Below, in pieces: positions 514-12,985 of a stretch of 22,967 nt of DNA (the first letter of the stretch is position 1; each line of letters opens with the position of its first letter). Source of the stretch: an uncultured delta proteobacterium (GTDB lineage Bacteria > Desulfobacterota > Zymogenia > Zymogenales > Zymogenaceae); contig CAWBYW010000036.1 of NCBI GenBank assembly GCA_963792965.1, positions 1 through 22,967 of the forward strand, read 5' to 3'. Below the pieces are notes generated by a model, which saw only the letters and a list, made by a program, of their open reading frames with translations, had not been told where the DNA came from and ran no database searches. The translations under genes and the position numbers were made by a program.

Positions 514-1059
514 TTTCTGGGTCACCACCTGGGAGACAAGGATCACGTCCGCTTTCTCGCGGATCGCCTCGCGGACCACCTCTTCCGAGCTCACCTGGGC
601 CCCCATGTTGATCGCCCGGAAACTCTTGTAGCGCTCAAGGCCGTAGTCCCCCGCGTACCCCTTCATGTTCATGATGGCGTCGATCCCGACGGTATGGGCG
701 TCGCTCTCGATACAGGCCCCAACGGTCGTGATGACCCGACCGAGCTTTTCCTCGATCATATGATCGATGACCTTCATGTTCGGGACCTTCGCCTCCTTCT
801 CCTGGAACCCCTCGATCTCGCTTATGTCCACCTGGTGGCGGACCCGTCCGTAGAGGACGACAAAGGTCATGTGCGAGCCGATGTCCGCGCTGTAGCTGAC
901 GTACGGGGTGTCGATCCCCATCTTGACGGCCAACCTCCGCGCGACCTCGTCGGCAAGCGGCCCCGACACATCGGGCAGGGTAAACGAGAGCTGAACGGCC
1001 CCGTCCCCCATCGAGTCGCCGTACGGCTTGACAAGCTTGCGAACTGTCTCTTGCTTCAT
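493..1059 (-). CDS. kamE: D-lysine 5,6-aminomutase beta subunit (B12-binding), C-terminally truncated
   Basis: VKPYGDSMGDGAVQLSFTLP dimerisation domain; cobalamin motif DAHTVG; IDAIMNMKGYAGDYGLERY; ADVILVSQVVTQK, after which similarity stops abruptly at ~514. Confidence 0.9.
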   Translation of the reverse strand: MKQETVRKLVKPYGDSMGDGAVQLSFTLPDVSGPLADEVARRLAVKMGIDTPYVSYSADIGSHMTFVVLYGRVRHQVDISEIEGFQEKEAKVPNMKVIDHMIEEKLGRVITTVGACIESDAHTVGIDAIMNMKGYAGDYGLERYKSFRAINMGAQVSSEEVVREAIREKADVILVSQVVTQKPAGSLP

Positions 1060-2598
1060 GGTCGTGCCTCAAGAAACGGATTGTAATAGTCCTCGGCCTT
1101 CTCGAGGACTCCCTCGGCCCCCTTGCCTCCCTTCGGGTCACGGTGGATGTCGGCAAACATCCCCCGCGAGAGCGCCTCAATGAGCGAGATATCGGCGATC
1201 TCGCCGAGCATCTCGTGCGCCTTCGAGAGGACCTCCGCGGCCCGCCGCTGGATGGTCCCCCCTGAGCGAAAGAGATCTCGTCGACGATCCCCTTCATGTT
1301 GTTCTTGGCGTACCGCGCCCCGGAAAGAGCCAGGTAGCGATCCCCCACAAAGGGCGTGTGGATCGCCTCGGTGAGGATCCCCAAGAGATGTATTGACTGG
1401 CCGGTCATGACCGAGCAAACGTTGAACATCATATCGGTCAGGTGCGTCTGGAACACGTTTCCCGTCACGTGTTTGGTCGGCGGCATGTACTTGATCGGCG
1501 CGTCGGGGAAGATCTCCCGGATCATCTGCGCCTGGGCAAGCTCCATGAGGAATCCTCCCTCGACGGTCGGATCGATCTCGAAGGCGTGGCCCAGCCCCAT
1601 GAGCTGGGCGGGGAGCCCCGACTTGTATGCGAACTCCTCGTTGATGAAATCGCTGGCCAACACGGTGTGCGCCTTTTCAACCGCGTCGGCGGTGGTCAGG
1701 TAGTTGTCCTCGCCGGTGTTGATGATAATCCCGGCCTTGGCGTTGATCATCCGGGAGAAATGCTGATCGACGAAGGTGCGGTAGGTATTGATGTTGCGGA
1801 AGATGATCCCGTACATCGAGTCGTTGAGCAGCATGTCCAGCCGTTCGAAGGCCGCCGCCACCGCGATCTCGGGCATGCAGAGGCCCGAGGCGTAGTTGAC
1901 CAGATTGATGTAGCGTCCCTGCTCGGCCAGCACTCGTCCAGCGCCGCGCGCATGATCCTGAAGTTTTCCTGGGTGGCGTAGGTGCCGCCGAAGCCCTCGG
2001 TGGTGGCCCCGAAGGGGACGTAGTCGAGCAGGCTCTGGGCGGTTGAGCGGATGACGGCGATGCAGTCGGCGCCGTTGCTCACCGCGCTTCTGGCCTGGGT
2101 CACGTCCTCGTAGATGTTGCCGGTGGCGACGATCACGTAGAGGAGCGGGGGCGCGCTCATCGGATATCTCATTCTGAGATCATCTCTTTCCTCCGCGCGT
2201 TTTGCGATCCTGGCAAGCCCCGCCTCGGCAAGGGGCCCGATGATCGCCCGGCGCCTTTCGCCCGACAGCTCCGGGACGTCCTTTACCCTGACCTTTCTTT
2301 CGGAGATAGCCCGGGCGGCCTCCGTCAGGGTGCCGCCCGTGTGCGCGATGAGATCGGCGCACGAAAGCGCTACCCCCGAGCGTAAGCCCCGCGCCTGCTT
2401 TATCGCGTCCACGAGGACGTTCGGGTAGGGGGTCCCGATTCTGTCCTTCCCGTCCAGGCCCAAAAGCCGTGTCACCGCCCGTTCAACGCTGTCCGTCGTA
2501 TGGGAGCGAATAAACCCCATGAGGTCTTCGGTGATCCTGTCGGCAAGGGTGCGGCACTCGTCGATCACTTTCCCGTCCAGGCCGAGTTTGCTTTCCAC
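1056..2598 (-). CDS. kamD: D-lysine 5,6-aminomutase alpha subunit, split by two single-base frameshifts (probable sequencing errors)
   Basis: Three consecutive frames give MESKLGLD...YVIVATGNIYEDVTQA...YVPFGATTEGFGGTYATQENFR / NYASGLCMPEIA...PIKYMPPTK...EAIHTP / GMFADIHRDPKGGKGAEGV...YYNPF. Shifts are at ~1933 and in the C-run 1257-1262. Confidence 0.9.
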
Positions 2599-5085: not shown

Positions 5086-5412
5086 ATGGAAGACAAGAGT
5101 AAAAGGGAAACGACGCAGAGCCAAAAAGACAACGCGCAGGGCCCCGAGAAGGTGGGACGACGCGAAGCCCTGAAGCGCATGGCCAAGGGACTCGCGCTGG
5201 TCGGGACGTTGGGCATCACCGCCGTTGTCACTCAGGGTCAGGATCAGTGTACTCCTCCCGTTCCCCCCGGTCTCTACTCAAACAGTTACTATAACTATTC
5301 AAACGCCTACTATAACTACTCCAACACATATTATAACTATTCTAACACCTACTACAACTACTCGAACGCATACTATAACTACTACAACAGCGGCGGCTAC
5401 TACAACTGGTAG
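5086..5412 (+). CDS. Putative RiPP-like/lipoprotein precursor 1 (RR leader, Cys55, YSNxYYN heptad core)
   Basis: AGGAGAAGACA-ATG; leader VGRREALKRMAKGLALVGTLGITAVVTQGQDQC; core of five YSN(S/A/T)YYN repeats; four paralogs adjacent. Confidence 0.88.
   Translation: MEDKSKRETTQSQKDNAQGPEKVGRREALKRMAKGLALVGTLGITAVVTQGQDQCTPPVPPGLYSNSYYNYSNAYYNYSNTYYNYSNTYYNYSNAYYNYYNSGGYYNW
5275..5379 (+). repeat. Five 21-nt coding tandem repeats (YSNxYYN)
   Basis: tactcaaacagttactataac / tattcaaacgcctactataac / tactccaacacatattataac / tattctaacacctactacaac / tactcgaacgcatactataac. Confidence 0.9.
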
Positions 5413-5596
5413 TCACAGACAGCACCGGCTCGCGTTGATTGGGGAGGCGATAACTTTGTTCATCGTCTCCCTTCTTGCCTTCCGCACGTTTTGCGTCTCC
5501 AGGAAAAGCGGACATCGTCTTCTCCTTTCCGCCCGCATTGGGTACCCGCCTCGAATTGGAGGCAATGTCTATTTTTAGCTGTCTATTGAAAAGCGC

Positions 5597-5625
5597 TTGA
5601 ATTATCCCTCCGGCTGTACTATACT
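5597..5625 (+). promoter_or_regulatory. Candidate sigma70 promoter for precursors 2-3
   Basis: TTGAAT 5597-5602, 17 nt spacer, TATACT 5620-5625; near-identical to 6868-6896. Confidence 0.6.
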
Positions 5626-5733
5626 TTTAAAAGGAAAATCTCACGATTTGACGGGCTGAGAACTCGTCATCGATACATCTAAAATTGTCTTGCCTGCTTT
5701 ATTTCGAGAACGCAATAAAACAAGGAGAAGACA

Positions 5734-6189
5734 ATGAAAGATAGACGGGGCACGGAGATACCGAAAGACAAAACCCCGTACGCCGACGAGCAGAAAAGAA
5801 TCGGCCGGCGCGAGGCGATGAAGCGAATGGCCAAGGGGATTGTATTGATCGGCACCCTCGGCATGGCGAGTATCGTCACCCGGACCGAGGGTGAATGCGC
5901 CTATTTTGACCATCACTCCAACACATACGATAATTACTACAATTACTACAACGCAAATCTGTTTTACTACAACGCATATTTCTACTACAACTATTACGAC
6001 TACTACGATTACCACAACTACTATAACGCATATTCCAATTACGTAAATTATTATGTCAACATATACGAATTCAATCCAGGATTCTACTATTTTGATTATT
6101 ACCGTGAGCGTGACCGCGACAGTGACCATGACCGAGATCGCGACCGTGATCGAGACCACGACCGCGACAGATACCGCCGCAACAGATGA
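5734..6189 (+). CDS. Putative precursor 2 (RR leader, Cys55, Y/N/D-rich core, Arg-Asp repeat tail)
   Basis: AGGAGAAGACA-ATG; IGRREAMKRMAKGIVLIGTLGMASIVTRTEGEC; YDNYYNYYN...YYDYYDYHNYYN; RERDRDSDHDRDRDRDRDHDRDR tail. Confidence 0.85.
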   Translation: MKDRRGTEIPKDKTPYADEQKRIGRREAMKRMAKGIVLIGTLGMASIVTRTEGECAYFDHHSNTYDNYYNYYNANLFYYNAYFYYNYYDYYDYHNYYNAYSNYVNYYVNIYEFNPGFYYFDYYRERDRDSDHDRDRDRDRDHDRDRYRRNR

Positions 6190-6365
6190 GCGCGCGGGTC
6201 GACGCGGCCACCCCCAGACAAGAATATGCCGGAGCAGACCGCGGGTTATACGCGAGGACACGGGACCTGTGGTTCCATGCCAAAGGTAATCGGCATCCCC
6301 CCAGGCTTGACCGGCGATCGTCTTTTCGCCTCACAGCTATAACGTGAAGAGCCGAGGAACGGGTA

Positions 6366-6686
6366 ATGGATGATAGAGAAAAGCGAGGAGCGCCCGCAAA
6401 CGAAATCCGGGGAGTCGGAAAAGAGGAGAAGATCGGCCGGCGCGAGGCGATGAAGCGCATCGCCAAAGGGATCGCGTTGGTCGGCTCCCTCGGGCTCACC
6501 GCCGCCGCGCTCCAGGGCCAGGGCGAGTGCGGATATGTAAACTACTACGTCAACTCATACTATAATTACTCCAACGCATATTATAACTATTACGATTACA
6601 GCAACTACTACAACTATTATAACTATTACAACTATAGCAATTCGTATTTCAACCACTTCCACCACTACCGCGACCATCACCATTAA
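6366..6686 (+). CDS. Putative precursor 3 (RR leader, Cys55, YxN core, His-rich tail)
   Basis: GAGGA RBS; IGRREAMKRIAKGIALVGSLGLTAAALQGQGEC; YVNYYVNSYYNYSNAYYNYYDYSNYYNYYNYYNYSN; HFHHYRDHHH. Confidence 0.87.
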   Translation: MDDREKRGAPANEIRGVGKEEKIGRREAMKRIAKGIALVGSLGLTAAALQGQGECGYVNYYVNSYYNYSNAYYNYYDYSNYYNYYNYYNYSNSYFNHFHHYRDHHH

Positions 6687-6867
6687 CGGGCCCGTGGGCC
6701 GAAACGTGACCCCCACAAAAGATCACGTCGGATAACCTCATCAACTTTTCGGTAAGGCAACAACCTGCCGGCGCGTACACCTGTTGCCGACCGCGCGGAT
6801 CATCGATCGCAAGAACTGCCATGCGGGAGATATCCGATAAAAAAGTCGACCATCAACTAACGTTCGT

Positions 6868-6896
6868 TTGACATATCCCTCCTTCTGTACTATACT
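6868..6896 (+). promoter_or_regulatory. Sigma70 promoter candidate for precursor 4
   Basis: TTGACA 6868-6873, 17 nt spacer, TATACT 6891-6896. Confidence 0.65.
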
Positions 6897-7062
6897 TTTA
6901 TAAAGATTATCCAAGGAATAACAGCACAAGCGAGGGAAAAGGAGAATAGGAATAGGCGGAACCGAAGACTACACCAGGACAGATCAAGAGCATCGGCACC
7001 GTTGAGTATAGAATTGTCTTACCTGCTTTATCGTGGAAACACAATGGAATAAGGAGGGGGCA

Positions 7063-7392
7063 ATGGAAAAAGGAAAAAGGAAGGGGACGCCGATTGAGGA
7101 GGGCGCGCAATCCCGTGAGACGGAAGGAATTTCACGGCGTGAGGCGATGAAACGTATGGCCAAGGGTGTGGCGCTGGTCGGGACCCTCGGTCTCACGAGT
7201 GCTGTCGTCGGGGGTCAGGGTGAGTGTGGATATGTAAACTACTACGTTAACGTGTATTATAACTATTTTGACTCGTATTCCAATTGGGGCTTCTTTTATT
7301 ACAACTTCCACGAAGGGTTTGAAGAGCGCGGGGAACACGAAGAGCATGAGGAGCACGAGGGCGGTGAGCGTCGCGGGGGGGGACGGCGTTAG
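7063..7392 (+). CDS. Putative precursor 4 (RR leader, Cys55, short YxN core, HEE-repeat tail)
   Basis: AAGGAGG at 7051-7057 before ATG 7063; this start puts the Cys at residue 55 as in paralogs 1-3. ISRREAMKRMAKGVALVGTLGLTSAVVGGQGEC; EHEEHEEHE tail. Confidence 0.85.
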   Translation: MEKGKRKGTPIEEGAQSRETEGISRREAMKRMAKGVALVGTLGLTSAVVGGQGECGYVNYYVNVYYNYFDSYSNWGFFYYNFHEGFEERGEHEEHEEHEGGERRGGGRR

Positions 7393-7601
7393 GACAGAGT
7401 GACCTGCCCGTGTGCGGTGCTTCACGAAGTTTTCCTTCATGTCGCCCTTCCTGCCCACTCCGCCACAATGTTGGCGGCATGGGGAGGCGCGAGACGGGCG
7501 GCTATCCCTTGGCTGGAGTCGTTTCCCGGGGGAGCCTGATATGCCATACCGATTTCGGGGCCGGATTCAATCCGCTCATATTTGACTGGGCGATTATGTA
7601 C

Positions 7602-7630
7602 TTGACGGAAGTCAGAGTATGCAGTATATT
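7602..7630 (+). promoter_or_regulatory. Candidate sigma70 promoter for precursor 5 and the maturase operon
   Basis: TTGACG 7602-7607, 17 nt spacer, TATATT 7625-7630. Confidence 0.55.
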
Positions 7631-7788
7631 TTTTAGACTACACGGCTCGTGAAATAGAAAAGAAACGCCGTTCAGGGGTCTAGTATATACGAAGGAATCG
7701 AGAAGTTCGAAACATCGCACAGTCTGGTAAGATCGTACTACCTTACTATCGAGTTTGCCCCTCTATGGAATTGAGCAGAGAATAGACA

Positions 7789-8142
7789 ATGAACGACAAA
7801 AAGAAGAGCGAAAAGCCGGCCGTCGAGAAGGGAGCTGAGAGCAACGAGAAGCTAAGCCGTCGCGAGGCCATGAAACGAATGGCAAAAGGCATCGCACTGG
7901 TCGGGACACTGGGCGTCACGGCCCTTGTAACGCAGGGTCAGGACGAGTGCACCGGCGGTTATAGCAACCTCTATTATAACTATTCGAACGCATACTACAA
8001 CTACTCCAACTCCTACTCTAACTATTCAAACTCCTATACCAACTATACAGAATTGTACTATAACTATTATAACTACAACAATTATTCCGATTACCAAAAT
8101 TATTCTGATTACCAGAATTATTACGATTACTACAACAATTAG
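7789..8142 (+). CDS. Putative precursor 5 (RR leader, Cys54, long YxN/YxD core)
   Basis: LSRREAMKRMAKGIALVGTLGVTALVTQGQDEC; YSNLYYNYSNAYYNYSNSYSNYSNSYTN...YSDYQNYSDYQNYYDYYNN. Confidence 0.88.
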   Translation: MNDKKKSEKPAVEKGAESNEKLSRREAMKRMAKGIALVGTLGVTALVTQGQDECTGGYSNLYYNYSNAYYNYSNSYSNYSNSYTNYTELYYNYYNYNNYSDYQNYSDYQNYYDYYNN

Positions 8143-9312: not shown

Positions 9313-10159
9313 TCAAGCGCTGATCGCGCGCCTTACCGATCGGGTAATCGTTCCCCGGGTCACGGACCCCTCCCTTATAGTTGACGCCGTGGGTCTTGTG
9401 CGCGCATCGACAAACCGCCTCTCCACGCTCATCCTCGACACCGGCCTTCCGGTAGCGGAAATACCCTTCAGCAAGGAGTGGGAAGGCGTGGCCCTGGCGG
9501 TCTTCGCCCCCTCGATGGGAAACTTTCGCGGGGTCGCCCGACACATCGAGTTGATCAGGCGCCTCGACCCCACGATCTACCTCCCGGTCGACAGCGGCGA
9601 GAACCTCTCGGCCCTTCGCGTACTCTCGTCGGTCGACGTCCGGTGCGCGGCTGTCTTCACGGGGCCCGGCCCGGTCGACTGGGAAGGGCTTTCCGATCTC
9701 ATGACCTACGCCATTCTCGGAACCGTCCCCCACGCATCGATCGAGCCCTTCGCCTATATCTCCGCCCGGTATCGAGCCGCCGGCTGGGTCAGGTGGGGCT
9801 CGGTCTTTTTTGACGATCCGCAGGACTTCTTCCACCTCGACAGAGAAGGGCGCGTGGCGCTGTCGGCCCGGGAGCTCGCCGAGGGAGCCTTCATCGAGGA
9901 AGACGTCGAGCGCCTCGACGATATCGCCAGCTACCCGGCCTACCGTCAGCGGATCGGCGTGCCGAAGGACATCTTCCTGGACTATCATCCCTGCTCGCGC
10001 TGCCCGGGGTGGCGCCTCTGCCTCGGGAGATTCGCGATCGGGTCGGAGGCACCGGAGGGGTGCGCCTCCTTTTTTAGCGAGATGATCGATCTCCTTCAGC
10101 AGTATCGGGGCCGTCAAAAGCAGTCGAAAAAGGAGCTCAATGACAACCGTCATCTTTAA
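9281..10159 (+). CDS. Radical SAM partner protein: no CxxxCxxC, C-terminal SPASM-like CxxC-x5-C...C cluster
   Basis: Overlaps both neighbours; ends HPCSRCPGWRLCLGRF...EGC; no SAM-cluster motif at the N-terminus. Confidence 0.7.
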   Translation: MGFPNLVCPFDQALIARLTDRVIVPRVTDPSLIVDAVGLVRASTNRLSTLILDTGLPVAEIPFSKEWEGVALAVFAPSMGNFRGVARHIELIRRLDPTIYLPVDSGENLSALRVLSSVDVRCAAVFTGPGPVDWEGLSDLMTYAILGTVPHASIEPFAYISARYRAAGWVRWGSVFFDDPQDFFHLDREGRVALSARELAEGAFIEEDVERLDDIASYPAYRQRIGVPKDIFLDYHPCSRCPGWRLCLGRFAIGSEAPEGCASFFSEMIDLLQQYRGRQKQSKKELNDNRHL

Positions 10160-12218
10160 GCCGACCGAGGCCTGCAACGGCAACTGTGTCTATTGTGAGG
10201 TGGTCAGGAAGGACCGCGAGCGGGGTGCACGGCTGCCCCAGGAGGCGCTCGAGCGATTCTTCATCAGGATCAATGAATTTCTCCTTGCGCGCCCGGAGGA
10301 GCGATTTCAGATCATCTGGCACGGCGGGGAGCCGCTGCTGTTGGGACCGGACTATTTCATGCGGGCCCATGAATACGAGAATAAGCACTGTCCCGAGACA
10401 AAAGATCGCATCACTCACGACATCCAGACCAACATCACCCTCTTCACGCGCGAATACGCGGAGGTATTCCGGACAATCGGGATAAGCCGGGTCAGCACGA
10501 GCTACGACCCGATCCCGGACGTTCGCGGGCTCGGGATTTCCACCGATTCGAAGGCCTATAATCGCCGCTTCATGGACGCGCTCTCGCTCCTCGACGAGGA
10601 GGGTTTCGACTGGGGGATGATCTATGTGGTCACCAAGCTGTCACTCGCGCACCCCCTCGATATCTTCTATTTCCTGACCAACCTCAATAAGACCGGTTCG
10701 GTCAAGTTCAACCCGATCTATTTCTACAAGCGGCGGATACAGGAGCTGGCGGTGACGCCCGAGGAGTTCGTCGAGTTTCTCGGCGCGATCTTTCCGGTCT
10801 GGTGGGAGCACCGGGAGCGTTTCCAGGGTACCCGGCCTTTTAACTCCTTTGTCGAGGCGATCATTGAAGGGAGCGGCGGCCTGGAATGCGCCGAGTCCGG
10901 GGCCTGCGCCGACTCACACTTTTCTCTGGGACCGTCCGGCACCTTTTCCCAGTGCGGTCGCTCCTCGGACTGGGGGCTTTTGGACTACGGTTCGGTCCAG
11001 GATCAGTCAATCGAGGCGGTATTCACCCACCCGCACAAGGAGCTATTCCGGTCACGATCACCCCGGCTCAAAGAGGGAGAGTGTAAGGGATGCCGATTCT
11101 GGGAGCTGTGTCACGGGGGATGTCCGCTGGACGCCTATGCCGAGACGGGTGATTGGCTAAAAAAATCTCCGCTCTGCGCCTATAGGAAGGGCTTCATCGA
11201 AAAGTACTTCGAGCCGATCACCGGGGTGCGCTACGAGCCGGACGCGCCAAGCCGCGTGCCCGAACCGGCGGACGAGCCAGCAGAGCCGAGCCGGGAAGTA
11301 AAGAAGATCGTGTCGTTCCCCTCCCCGCCGAAGAATAAACCCGTCTGGATCAATCCCTTCGGCGGACTTGGCGATACGGTGATCCTTTCCAGCGTCCTGA
11401 AGGCCGGGCTCGATAAAAACCCAAAAAGAAGGTTCAACGTAGTCGCCCGCACATCCTACGGCGAGCTGCTGCGGGGTCACCCGGCCGTCGACAAGATCGG
11501 GAATCCGCCCCCCGGCACTTATGTCGTCTCCACCGCCTATTGGGATCACCCCGACTTCGGCGGCCCCGGCGGGAGGCCCTTCGGTATTCTTTCCCGAATG
11601 CTCGGGCTTGATCTTCCTCAAGAGGGGCCCTTGTTCGTCCCGCCACCGATCGAGATCGACGAGCTCCTTGTCTCGCGCATCCCGTTTTCCGGCAGGAACG
11701 TCCTGATCTGCCCCTCCTGTTCTTCACCGCGGAAGGAGATGGAACTGAGCACCTGGGAGGCTGTGGTCACCGAGCTATCCGCGCAGGGGGTCTTCGTCGC
11801 CCAGGCAGGAAGGCGGCATGATCGCTACGTCCGGGGGGCTTTCAGCCTCCTCGGCGTCACCACCCCGCGTCAGCTCATTGCCCTCGTCTCAAGATTTGAC
11901 GCCATAGTGGCGACTGACAACTTCATGGGACCCGCTGCGCATCTGGTCGGGAGGCCGGCCGTCGTCCTCTGGGGGCCGACCGACCCGGCAACCTTCGGCT
12001 ACCCTTCCCAGACCCACCTGTTGGGGCACCGAATCTGCCAGAACCCCGAGGGATGCCTTGCCCGCGGACGGGCGACGCTCTATGCGACCCGCTGCCCCCT
12101 CGGGCCGTCTCACTGCATGAACCGGATAGAAGCCAACGCGATCGTCGCGGCGGTGAAAAAAGTCTTGGCGGGCGCCAGCGAGAAAGGAAAGGCGATCGGC
12201 ACCGGTCCTAAAACGTAA
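10140..12218 (+). CDS. Radical SAM/SPASM maturase fused to a C-terminal GT9 (heptosyltransferase-like) glycosyltransferase
   Basis: KPTEACNGNCVYC, IWHGGEPLL, IQTN, CAESGAC...QCGR...CKGCRFWELCHGGCP...LC; Pro-rich linker; then GGLGDTVILSSVL, SPRKE, TDNF...AAHLVGRPAVVLWGPTDP and a C-terminal Cys cluster typical of GT9. Confidence 0.88.
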   Translation: MTTVIFKPTEACNGNCVYCEVVRKDRERGARLPQEALERFFIRINEFLLARPEERFQIIWHGGEPLLLGPDYFMRAHEYENKHCPETKDRITHDIQTNITLFTREYAEVFRTIGISRVSTSYDPIPDVRGLGISTDSKAYNRRFMDALSLLDEEGFDWGMIYVVTKLSLAHPLDIFYFLTNLNKTGSVKFNPIYFYKRRIQELAVTPEEFVEFLGAIFPVWWEHRERFQGTRPFNSFVEAIIEGSGGLECAESGACADSHFSLGPSGTFSQCGRSSDWGLLDYGSVQDQSIEAVFTHPHKELFRSRSPRLKEGECKGCRFWELCHGGCPLDAYAETGDWLKKSPLCAYRKGFIEKYFEPITGVRYEPDAPSRVPEPADEPAEPSREVKKIVSFPSPPKNKPVWINPFGGLGDTVILSSVLKAGLDKNPKRRFNVVARTSYGELLRGHPAVDKIGNPPPGTYVVSTAYWDHPDFGGPGGRPFGILSRMLGLDLPQEGPLFVPPPIEIDELLVSRIPFSGRNVLICPSCSSPRKEMELSTWEAVVTELSAQGVFVAQAGRRHDRYVRGAFSLLGVTTPRQLIALVSRFDAIVATDNFMGPAAHLVGRPAVVLWGPTDPATFGYPSQTHLLGHRICQNPEGCLARGRATLYATRCPLGPSHCMNRIEANAIVAAVKKVLAGASEKGKAIGTGPKT

Positions 12219-12985
12219 TGCACCCCATCCTCTTCACCATCGGCCGTCACCTCGTCTACGGCTACGGTTTTTTCGTGACCCTCGGCTATCTCTCGGGCGT
12301 CGTACTCTTTCTCGCGCTCGTCGGCCGTGAGGGGCTCCCCGTCTGGACGGGAGTTGACCTCATCCTCTGGATGCTTCCCTCGGCCCTGATTGGGGCAAAG
12401 CTTCTCTTCATCGTAACCAACTGGGACGAATTCGTCATGCAGCCTTCCCCCACCGCGGGCGGCTGGTCCTTCCAGGGGGCGCTCCTCGGGGCGCTCGCCC
12501 TGGCCCTTTTCCTTTTCAGGAGGCGGCGGCTTGACGCTTGGCGGTGGCTCGACACCGCAGCGCCGTCGCTTGCGCTCGTCGCCGCAGTGGGCAGGATTGG
12601 GTGCCTCATGGCAGGCTGCTGCTACGGCTCCCCCACGAGTCTGCCCTGGGGCGTCGTCTTCACCAAATCGACGGTCGCCCCCCTCAACACCCCCCTGCAC
12701 CCGACCCAGGTCTACTACCTGATAGCAAATCTCGCCATATGTGTTACGCTGCTGGCGCGCAGGAGGACGGCGGCTTTTCGCGGAGAGCTGATTCTCCTGT
12801 TCGTCCTCCTCTACACGACCTCCCGCAGCATAATCGACCCCTTCCGGGGTGGTGTCGAAAAGACCTACCTGTGGGGCACCGTCACCGCCTACCAGATCAT
12901 CACGATCACCGCGATTATCGTCGTGGCTCTCCTCTACCTCCGAATGAGGGAGAGGAATAAGACGGAAGACCGGATCGCCGATTGA
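12218..12985 (+). CDS. lgt: Prolipoprotein diacylglyceryl transferase family protein (cluster-encoded Lgt)
   Basis: MHPILFTIG...YGFF, IGAKL, GGWSFQGA, LDTAAPSLAL...GRIGCLMAGCCYGSPTSLPWGVVF...LHPTQVY, RSIIDPFRG. TAATG coupling to the upstream gene. Confidence 0.88.
   Translation: MHPILFTIGRHLVYGYGFFVTLGYLSGVVLFLALVGREGLPVWTGVDLILWMLPSALIGAKLLFIVTNWDEFVMQPSPTAGGWSFQGALLGALALALFLFRRRRLDAWRWLDTAAPSLALVAAVGRIGCLMAGCCYGSPTSLPWGVVFTKSTVAPLNTPLHPTQVYYLIANLAICVTLLARRRTAAFRGELILLFVLLYTTSRSIIDPFRGGVEKTYLWGTVTAYQIITITAIIVVALLYLRMRERNKTEDRIAD

Follow-up and report, generated by a model that had tools for sequence, protein, structure and literature searches.

Precursor genes and the adjoining cassette

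We analyzed a stretch of 22,967 nucleotides, here called the window, from an uncultured delta proteobacterium (GenBank assembly GCA_963792965.1, contig CAWBYW010000036.1, positions 1 to 22,967). It contains five paralogous genes for Tyr/Asn-rich repeat proteins, followed directly on their 3' side by four genes encoding a 343-residue radical S-adenosylmethionine (SAM) enzyme, a 292-residue protein, a 692-residue protein in which a radical SAM/SPASM domain is fused to a GT9 domain, and a member of the Lgt family (Table 1). The five genes, called precursors 1 to 5 (p1 to p5), have 106-151 codons each and occupy positions 5086-8142 of the + strand; the G+C content of this region is 0.49-0.52, compared with 0.60-0.64 in the flanks. 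All five products share one order of elements: a charged N-terminal region, the motif [S/G]RREA[L/M]KR[M/I]AKG, a Gly/Thr-rich hydrophobic stretch, a polar Cys box, and a Tyr/Asn-rich core. Each has a single cysteine at residue 54 or 55 (p4 being counted from the ATG at 7063), and the core begins after it.

A scan of one genome per species gave 80 loci of this kind, which were taken with 10-kb flanks and which, together with the window, make the set of 81 loci used throughout (designated by L and a number). Their records are labeled as delta- and alphaproteobacteria, Acidobacteriota, Nitrospirota, Bacteroidota, Spirochaetota, Chlorobi, Planctomycetota, Verrucomicrobiota, Fibrobacterota, Elusimicrobia, Gemmatimonadetes, Armatimonadetes and Veillonellaceae; L077 is from Pleomorphomonas oryzae DSM 16300, and L080, which carries the cassette as well, from Segatella copri of the human gut. 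The SPASM enzyme was matched in all 81 loci, the 292-residue protein in 78 and the 343-residue enzyme (radical SAM enzyme 1) in 76, one of these matches being weak (2e-6). In most loci, the genes for enzyme 1 and the 292-residue protein immediately precede the SPASM gene and keep this order. Of the 81 loci, 72 also have precursors that share the leader (68 found with a hidden Markov model (HMM) of the leader, L012 with phmmer, and L014, L073 and L078 by composition), and most of the nine loci that lack one are short or cut contigs. For the 692-residue protein there are hundreds of full-length relatives.

Neither a protease nor an ABC exporter was found in the conserved cassette. PADLOC returned only weak matches of viperin models to the radical SAM domains and no assignment to a defense system. 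A literature search, whose coverage was incomplete and left the surveys of the triceptide landscape outside, turned up no publication in which radical SAM enzymes are combined with a Tat signal, with Tyr-rich repeats or with a heptosyltransferase. The cassette is widespread and apparently undescribed. In two Bacteroidales loci (L056:11114-12193 and L060:11124-12197), a second SPASM-type radical SAM paralogue lies between the SPASM and GT9 genes.

Table 1. Features of the window discussed in the text
Feature	Coordinates	Strand	Remarks
Precursor 1 (p1), 108 aa	5086..5412	+	charged N-terminal region, GRREALKRMAKG and hydrophobic stretch, QDQC box (Cys55); core of 12 YxN triplets ending in GGYYNW; leader-HMM match E=3e-17
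Five tandem YSNxYYN heptads of p1	5275..5379	+	Ser codons tca, tca, tcc, tct, tcg
Upstream element of 47 nt ahead of p2	5594..5640	+	81% identity to 6865-6911
Sigma-70-like site TTGAAT-17-TATACT in the first 47-nt element	5597-5625	+	consensus match
Precursor 2 (p2), 151 aa	5734..6189	+	same signal, EGEC box, 15 aromatic-x-N/D triplets, C-terminal Arg-Asp/His repeat tail
Precursor 3 (p3), 106 aa	6366..6686	+	QGEC box, 13 triplets, His-rich tail
Second copy of the 47-nt element, ahead of p4	6865..6911	+	holds TTGACA-17-TATACT (6868-6896, 11 of 12)
Precursor 4 (p4), 109 aa	7063..7392	+	QGEC box, 6 triplets, Glu/His/Arg-rich tail; alternative start at upstream GTG 7033 gives 119 aa
Promoter-like site TTGACG-17-TATATT ahead of p5	7602..7630	+	consensus match only
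Precursor 5 (p5), 117 aa	7789..8142	+	QDEC box, 17 non-overlapping triplets
Radical SAM enzyme 1, 343 aa	8281..9312	+	CX3CX2C at C10/C14/C17
Pseudo-radical-SAM protein, 292 aa	9281..10159	+	32-nt overlap with the enzyme 1 gene
Radical SAM/SPASM and GT9 protein, 692 aa	10140-12218	+	
anSME-like radical SAM/SPASM domain	10140..11294	+	residues 1 to ~385 of the 692-aa protein
GT9 (heptosyltransferase-like) domain	11322..12218	+	part of the 692-aa protein
Divergent Lgt (prolipoprotein diacylglyceryl transferase) paralogue	12218..12985	+	ATG overlaps the upstream stop (TAATG)

Tyr-x-Asn/Asp triplets in the cores

A preliminary description of this DNA had parsed the cores into triplets of an aromatic residue, any residue, and Asn or Asp. 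All eight of the triplets that it named (YYN, YSN, YVN, YTN, YQN, YHN, YYD and YSD) are present, and a recount of YxN in p1 again gave 12. We compared the number of Y-x-[N/D] in each core with that in 5000 shuffles of its residues. The observed numbers were 12 in p1 (shuffle mean 4.2), 13 in p3 (5.0), 6 in p4 (1.0) and 18 in p5 (7.1), none of which was reached in any shuffle; p2, with 14 against a mean of 8.4, was equaled or exceeded in 31 of 5000. Asn and Asp residues have an aromatic residue two positions before them in 12 of 12 cases in p1, 15 of 29 in p2 (where the Arg-Asp tail is included), 13 of 13 in p3, 6 of 6 in p4 and 18 of 19 in p5. Non-overlapping aromatic-x-[N/D] triplets number 12, 15, 13, 6 and 17 in p1 to p5, and account for 36 of 44, 45 of 65, 39 of 47, 18 of 25 and 51 of 59 residues of the repeat zones. 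Since coverage is less than complete, the cores consist of triplets and one-residue spacers and do not form a continuous array of period three.

The same description held that the peptide rather than the DNA repeat is conserved, and pointed to the five YSNxYYN heptads of p1, in which the Ser codon varies. The heptads and codons are as described (Table 1), and the conclusion is borne out by three comparisons. Identity among the DNA copies of the repeats is only 60-77%, and when the heptads are compared codon by codon in pairs, 25 of the differences are synonymous and 8 non-synonymous. Orthologues of p1 (L004_a, L053_a), p4 (L004_b) and p5 (L004_c, L053_b, L005_b) occur in three related genomes; the proportion of synonymous differences between the cores of orthologue pairs is 0.55-0.98, which is near saturation, versus 0.08-0.28 for non-synonymous differences, and dN/dS is 0.05-0.14 in those pairs for which dS could be computed. 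Taken at the level of sequence, these values support protein-level selection on the cores.

The motif was then surveyed in homologous precursors, with 73 cores used for the counts by offset and 72 for the shuffles and Tyr-Tyr spacings; the sequences are related, so that the counts are not independent events. Asn, Asp or Ser stands two residues after 1100 of 1717 tyrosines (64%) versus 34% expected from core composition, with 19-44% at other offsets, and no other offset equals +2 in 58 of the 73 cores. Shuffling reached the observed count no more than 10 times in 1000 for 51 of the 72 cores. Tyrosines are spaced by 3 or 6 residues in 48 of 72. Cores with a period of four (GYSS, YTSG; for example those of L029, L030, L036 and L056) retain Y-x-S. 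Y-x-Y is not conserved family-wide: in cores of the NYANY type, no tyrosines are two residues apart, while Y-x-N is nearly complete. Because Y-x-S persists at period four and Y-x-Y is not kept throughout, we take the conserved unit to be Tyr(i)-x-[Asn/Asp/Ser](i+2) and not the periodicity itself. The preliminary description took a lack of the three-residue pattern in homologous precursors as refuting its reading; the i,i+2 unit is kept in about 70 homologous precursors from many phyla, also at period four, and the reading is not refuted on this count.

Two groups of relatives depart from the size or pattern of the window precursors. One sub-family (L015-L017 and L022-L025) has strict NYxNYx cores of period three with one cysteine near either end (NYCNY...NKCK), and four of its loci, L022-L025, have no GT9 gene. 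In the other group, of 250-340 residues, the Tat signal and Tyr-repeat zone precede a folded C-terminal domain. The domain after the Tyr zone is Peptidase_S74 (chaperone of endosialidase, an intramolecular chaperone; 2.1e-16) in L066:12040-12807, and Lcl_C in L073:12014-12826 and L078:4269-5144 (1e-9 and 2e-10). Peptidase_S74 and Lcl_C domains are typical of trimeric fibers.

The radical SAM proteins

Among 24 sequences of the SPASM enzyme, C12, C16 and C19 (CX3CX2C) are invariant, as are C250, C256, C272, C315, C318, C324, C328 and C346, eight further cysteines that include a CX2CX5CX3C motif. The enzyme passes the SPASM model TIGR04085 (42.3 bits, cut-off 27). Its best NCBIfam matches are DynA (4e-41, 141 bits) and anSME (7.5e-38, ~130 bits), followed by DarE, DarW, AmcB, GrrM/OscB and YhhB, and its sequence matches among solved structures in the PDB include anSME (6e-18) and ChlB, a triceptide synthase (2.6e-8). 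Scores with the curated cyclophane-synthase models, in bits against their cut-offs, were 82.2/310 for TIGR04261 (GrrM/OscB), 38.6/450 for TIGR04496 (XyeB), 57.8/370 for TIGR04269 (FxsB), 75.5/445 for NF041707 (YhhB) and 84.3/425 for NF041718 (AmcB). The anSME model TIGR03942 gave 132.7 bits with a cut-off of 349.45, while two true anSMEs of the same genome pass it with 429.1 and 402.9 bits. Judged by sequence, the SPASM enzyme is its own branch of the anSME-like group, and by inference it might work like a cyclophane synthase.

Radical SAM enzyme 1 has, besides its CX3CX2C motif, seven more invariant cysteines in the C-terminal half. It matches HxsC and HxsB far under their cut-offs (2.8e-4 and 3.8e-4), and a search of the ESM Atlas with it returned only unnamed radical SAM clusters. 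The 292-residue protein encoded by the overlapping gene had no Pfam or NCBIfam match and no sequence match to a solved structure at E values up to 1. Its AlphaFold2 model (mean predicted local distance difference test, pLDDT, 94.7) has a fold like that of radical SAM/SPASM enzymes; Foldseek gave ChlB as the best match (TMq 0.61) and anSME next (0.57), then SuiB, CteB and PqqE. The protein lacks CX3CX2C and has invariant C238, C241 and C247; because that motif is missing and those three cysteines are kept, we regard it as a pseudo-enzyme.

A complex of enzyme 1 and the 292-residue protein was predicted with an ipSAE of 0.82 (0.82, 0.80 and 0.83 in separate runs), the best of three controls reaching 0.00. 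The partner has a pLDDT of at least 84 and contact agreement is at least 97%; the predicted interface is formed by residues 66-75 of enzyme 1 and residues 81-87 and 110-118 of the partner. Of 157 solved complexes, 116 reach that ipSAE mark, as do 2 of 215 mismatched pairs; this calibration is rough here, our own alignments having been used. The models thus support a heterodimer of an active radical SAM enzyme and a dead partner of the same fold, which would be a new enzyme architecture. All three radical-SAM-fold proteins are equally conserved in the cassette, so that enzyme 1 is a candidate for activity on the triplets as well as the SPASM enzyme.

N-terminal signal and Cys box

The twin-arginine translocation (Tat) consensus is [S/T]-R-R-x-hydrophobic-hydrophobic-K, followed by a mildly hydrophobic stretch. 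All five window precursors have [S/G]RREA[L/M]KR and a hydrophobic stretch such as GIALVGTLGVTALV, which fits this consensus, and the motif, written as [S/T]RR[D/E]A[L/I/M]K, is matched in all precursors. TatC is encoded in the genome of the window (254 bits). A tatC or tatA gene is present in the same locus in 8 of the 81 cases, all above the Pfam cut-offs, and a tat gene immediately follows the precursor in L046, L051, L069, L075, L076 and L080. The precursor N-terminus is, on this sequence evidence, a predicted Tat signal rather than a leader removed by a protease.

The signal ends in 78 leaders comprise 13 strict and 4 loose lipoboxes, 26 other Cys contexts (12 of them from the clade of the window) and 35 ends lacking cysteine, some of which are of the AxA type. 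The Q[D/G][E/Q]C box is confined to the window's clade. We also noticed that the first 47 residues of p5 (7789-7930) resemble TIGR04117, the model of a radical SAM target with Cys-Xaa-Xaa-Xaa repeats, at E 0.013 and 15.6 bits (cut-off 50), which hints that another radical SAM target family may share the precursor leader.

The GT9 domain and the Lgt paralogue

The GT9 domain passes PF01075 with 28.7 bits (cut-off 22). Its AlphaFold2 model (pLDDT 92.2) has TibC as the top Foldseek match (TMq 0.70, E 2.6e-10); TibC, 3tov, WaaF and WaaC are all found at E values of about 1e-10 to 1e-9, as expected of a GT-B fold like that of heptosyltransferases. The sequence profile of the domain detected WaaF (2.6e-6) and other GT9 proteins and did not detect TibC. 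A GT9 gene is present in 60 of the 81 loci, fused to the SPASM gene in 26 and as a separate open reading frame (ORF) in 34. Going by the modeled fold, the domain probably adds sugars to the products.

Of the three Lgt-family genes found in the genome, that of the window diverges most. With PF01790 it scores 156.4 bits (cut-off 24.9) versus 263 and 218 for the other two, and with the equivalog model TIGR00544, whose cut-off is 118.9, 89.9 versus 220.9 and 146.4. It has the motif GRIGCLMAGCCYG in place of GRIGNFINGELFGR of the C26 copy. A second non-canonical paralogue (C16:199715-200584, - strand) shares GRIGCLMAGCCYG with it and passes TIGR00544. Only the window, L004, L005 and L053 have an Lgt gene adjoining the cassette, and these are exactly the loci whose precursors have the Q[D/G][E/Q]C box. 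By reasoning from this association, the window Lgt may carry out a dedicated lipidation step.

Two further candidates were set aside. A 949-residue fusion of radical SAM, GT9 and Lgt in L004 (P0003) was rejected as Rosetta-stone evidence, since comparison of its overlap region (12020-12130) with window positions 12170-12260 showed the TAATG overlap to be kept in another frame. The Lgt match in L014 (E 6e-16) was taken as unrelated, as it is 1.8 kb beyond the cassette at a locus where the precursor has a canonical lipobox.

The Tat signal with its Cys box, the Lgt paralogue and the GT9 domain together indicate that the products are probably exported, anchored and glycosylated proteins and not free peptides.

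Upstream elements, tails and other genes

Sigma-70-like sites lie about 110-160 nt 5' of p2, p4 and p5, two of them inside the copies of the 47-nt element, and a conserved ribosome-binding stretch similar to AAGGAGAAGACAATG precedes four of the five precursor starts. The C-terminal tails are paralogue-specific: p2 has an Arg-Asp/His tail encoded by a 12-nt repeat (6103-6169), p3 has HHYRDHHH (6656-6683), and p4 has a Glu/His/Arg-rich tail (7300-7389) whose acidic/His type is kept in L004_b. These tails may serve in metal binding or in the tuning of charge.

Two orphan precursors of 136 and 141 residues are encoded on contig C7 of the same genome, at 493818-494228 (- strand) and 439496-439921 (+ strand). 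They share the RR leader and have cores of Tyr-x-Asp/Asn, with no maturase genes adjoining them; no second cassette was found in the genome.

The genes flanking the cassette, for lysine fermentation upstream and for a pilin-like protein and fatty-acid oxidation further downstream, look unrelated to it. One of them, the alpha subunit of lysine 5,6-aminomutase at 635-2598 (- strand), is split into two overlapping ORFs, 1747-2598 covering positions 1-219 of the profile and 635-1933 covering 221-444; the split may be natural or may come from a frameshift or from faulty assembly. In the read archives, no RNA run was listed for this DNA, and three DNA runs from one study contain 5-9% of the sampled words.

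Comparison with known systems

Triceptides are defined by a link from an aromatic residue to a Cbeta on an aromatic-X-X3 motif (PMC11499958). Known cyclophanes include those joining Trp or Phe to the Cbeta of Asn, Asp or Ser and Tyr-C3 to that of Asp or Arg (PMC11002830), and a link from Tyr to the Cbeta of Lys is known as well (PMC12912966). The enzymes named for triceptides are XncB/XyeB, OscB/GrrM, MscB/FxsB, YxdB, YhhB, HaaB, ChlB and MicB. The window system resembles these in that its precursors repeat an aromatic-X-X3 motif with Asn, Asp or (in the family) Ser at position 3 and that its maturase is an anSME-like radical SAM/SPASM enzyme homologous to ChlB and GrrM. It is unlike them in the standing of the maturase, which is under every curated cut-off and an outlier in pairwise scores, in having 6-17 motifs per protein and two further obligatory neighbors of radical SAM fold, and in its Tat signal, GT9 domain and Lgt paralogue.

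The nearest functional analogue is HXS, an antiphage system in which HxsA, a periplasmic effector with His-x-Ser repeats, is matured by two radical SAM enzymes; maturation adds 8 Da on SHRSS, and the mark was detected on one of five repeats (PMC13128918). Both systems would have an exported protein with aromatic-x-Ser repeats, cytoplasmic maturation, and two radical SAM enzymes with an accessory partner, which in HXS takes the form of an HxsC-HxsD complex; the working of the HXS repeats as a multivalent array and the action of HxsA in the periplasm are further likenesses. The Hxs models are far below their cut-offs, TIGR03978 giving 57.4/370 with the SPASM enzyme (which matches HxsB at 1.1e-15) and 19.3/370 with enzyme 1, and TIGR03977 giving 19.9/267.9. 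Pfam and NCBIfam scans found neither HxsD nor a peptidoglycan-binding domain at the window locus. Unlike those of HXS, the window repeats are Tyr-based and uncharged, and DNA binding is therefore unlikely.

DAG-RiPPs are hybrids of lipoproteins and peptides made on the ribosome and modified after translation (RiPPs), in which MNIO-modified peptides enter the normal lipoprotein pathway (PMC13056109). In common with the window system, they are modified in the cytoplasm and have an N-terminal signal that contains a conserved Cys and leads toward the lipoprotein pathway, which is a prediction for the window. DAG-RiPPs differ in using canonical lipoboxes and the Lgt, LspA and Lnt of the host, and the word "Tat" is absent from the main text of that paper; the window has instead radical SAM enzymes, a Tat-type signal, a non-canonical box and its own Lgt paralogue.

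anSME, the best solved-structure sequence match of the SPASM enzyme, abstracts a hydrogen at the Cbeta of Ser or Cys in a protein that is later exported. In contrast, the window enzyme is far below the cut-off of TIGR03942 and has no sulfatase nearby. TibC acts as a glycosyltransferase on Ser of an exported protein rich in repeats. The GT9 domain is similar to TibC/BAHT and to lipopolysaccharide heptosyltransferases, passing PF01075 with a model nearest to TibC, then to WaaF and WaaC; unlike TibC, it is fused to a radical SAM enzyme, and at the level of sequence it reaches only WaaF and other GT9 proteins.

Proposed pathway and alternatives

Our best reading is that the five genes do not encode classical leader-plus-core antibiotic precursors. 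We propose, with a probability of about one half, that they encode exported Tyr-repeat proteins which are modified in the cytoplasm, stapled, glycosylated, exported through Tat and lipid-anchored. Each protein would begin with the putative Tat signal (charged n-region, [S/G]RREA[L/M]KR[M/I]A, Gly/Thr-rich stretch and Q[D/G][E/Q]C box). Before export, the Tyr-x-Asn/Asp units would serve in the cytoplasm as the substrate motif of enzyme 1 with its dead partner and of the anSME-like SPASM enzyme. The most likely chemistry would be abstraction of hydrogen at the Cbeta two residues after Tyr and coupling to the Tyr ring, giving three-residue cyclophanes of the triceptide type, up to 6-17 per protein, and thereby a stiff stapled rod. 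Sugars would probably be added by the TibC-like GT9 domain of the 692-residue protein, and the finished chain would leave through Tat, which carries folded or modified cargo. The Lgt paralogue of the cluster would then attach diacylglycerol to the invariant Cys, whose box a housekeeping Lgt would not be expected to accept. We infer both the chemistry of each step and this order of events; the product could act as an envelope-anchored structural or protective array.

For the chemistry, the idea of a triceptide-like maturase in the preliminary description holds in part. It is favored by the family-wide i,i+2 motif, by the CX3CX2C motif with the full set of SPASM cysteines, and by the neighborhood of DynA, anSME, DarE and the cyclophane synthases, and a cyclophane, although unproven, is by analogy the best single chemical guess. 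What did not stand is membership in a known group, and a number of other results also weigh against parts of our proposal. The SPASM enzyme falls below every curated cyclophane-synthase, daropeptide and anSME cut-off. In pairwise scores with three true anSMEs and one true GrrM (323.7 bits, from G017, a genome of the same phylum), it is the outlier, with 44.6 bits to GrrM and 49-68 to the anSMEs, while GrrM and the anSMEs score 92-103 with one another. Enzyme 1, and not the SPASM enzyme, may act on the triplets, or they may be modified in two ways, and the mark of HXS is +8 Da and not -2 Da (PMC13128918). Among the precursors, those of the alphaproteobacterial loci L064, L072 and L077 have Asn, Asp or Ser at +3 and not at +2. 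For the export route, the Tat-signal model TIGR01409 is not matched by the five window precursors, and relatives score 16.3, 13.8, 13.4 and 10.9 bits with a cut-off of 16.7. The window boxes (Q[D/G][E/Q]C and EGEC) are no canonical lipobox, and the orphan precursors on C7 have no Cys box. A GT9 gene was not found in 21 of the 81 loci, several of which are cut contigs. The case for lipidation rests on gene linkage in four closely related loci, that is, on one evolutionary event, and the L004 fusion may be a frameshift in a long-read assembly.

Three other explanations were considered. The same substrates and the same export could be combined with a different radical chemistry on Y-x-N/D/S, such as an HXS-like +8 Da bridge, anSME-like oxidation at the Cbeta of Ser or Asn, Tyr-O-Cbeta ethers of the daropeptide type on Y-x-Y, epimerization, or two different marks from two active enzymes. 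We regard this as rather unlikely, but several results speak for it: the best scores of the SPASM enzyme are with DynA and anSME and not with cyclophane-synthase models, it is an outlier to GrrM, two radical SAM enzymes of active type are conserved in the cassette, both have sub-cut-off Hxs matches (enzyme 1 to HxsC and HxsB, the SPASM enzyme to HxsB), and HXS maturation does yield +8 Da on SHRSS (PMC13128918). Y-N-Y is also recurrent in the window heptads, but the absence of Y-x-Y from cores of the NYANY type argues against ethers as the family-wide product, and the occurrence of Asn, Asp or Ser at position 3 fits Cbeta abstraction with capture by the ring better than it fits the Ser/Cys-specific formylglycine reaction. 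The proteins might instead function mainly through composition and self-assembly, as an amyloid-like or trimeric fiber or a glycosylated stalk, with a radical SAM mark that is minor, site-specific or needed only in processing or export. Some support has accrued to the fiber and to glycosylation, both of which the preliminary description had listed: the N/Y composition is prion-like, the Tyr zone stands between the Tat signal and trimeric-fiber-type domains in L066 (Peptidase_S74), L073 and L078 (Lcl_C), the GT9 domain occurs in 60 of 81 loci, and the HXS mark was seen on only one of five repeats (PMC13128918). Composition alone would nevertheless hardly explain why Tyr is so strictly followed at i+2 by Asn, Asp or Ser even where the period changes, or why a three-gene radical-SAM cassette is co-inherited with the precursors across phyla, and we consider a function of this kind improbable.

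Least probable of all, and in our view very much so, is a classical RiPP in which RRxAxKRxA is a leader recognized by the maturase and removed by a protease, the product is a small diffusible peptide, and both the likeness to a Tat signal and the nearby Lgt gene are coincidental. Conservation of RR[D/E]A[L/I/M]KR[I/M]A across phyla beyond the needs of a Tat motif would fit such a leader, as would the shortfall of the window precursors with TIGR01409 and the weak resemblance of the p5 N-terminus to TIGR04117. The cassette has, on the other hand, no protease or ABC exporter, tatA or tatC is beside the precursor in 8 loci, relatives have canonical lipobox or AxA ends after the hydrophobic stretch, and some are 250-340 residues long with folded C-terminal domains.

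Implications

If the proposal is correct, these proteins, in which a chain has as many as 17 motifs, would rank among the largest known ribosomal products of poly-cyclophane or other radical-stapled type. They would also be, as far as we know, the first family of radical-SAM-modified substrates to be sent through Tat. The capacity of Tat for folded cargo would then account for the exit of a heavily cross-linked chain in the absence of a dedicated transporter. Recruitment of an Lgt paralogue to a biosynthetic cluster, for a Cys box that is not canonical, would extend the rules of bacterial lipoprotein recognition.

A more far-reaching and speculative reading, which we hold to be unlikely as a whole, is that the system makes an unrecognized envelope material, in which arrays stapled and glycosylated in the cytoplasm are exported through Tat and held by an Lgt paralogue that lipidates a Cys outside any lipobox (Q-D-E-C). 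Such a material would correspond, in prokaryotes, to cross-linked wall proteins rich in Tyr, of which the extensins of plants are an example, and its arrays would in some lineages be tipped with the trimeric-fiber domains Peptidase_S74 and Lcl_C. The larger finding is that of Tat-signal proteins belonging to a widespread cassette of three radical-SAM-fold proteins, to which the clade of the window adds a GT9 domain and a private Lgt paralogue. Since the cassette occurs in many phyla, including the gut bacterium Segatella copri, its product could be a common and so far unseen component of the cell envelope.

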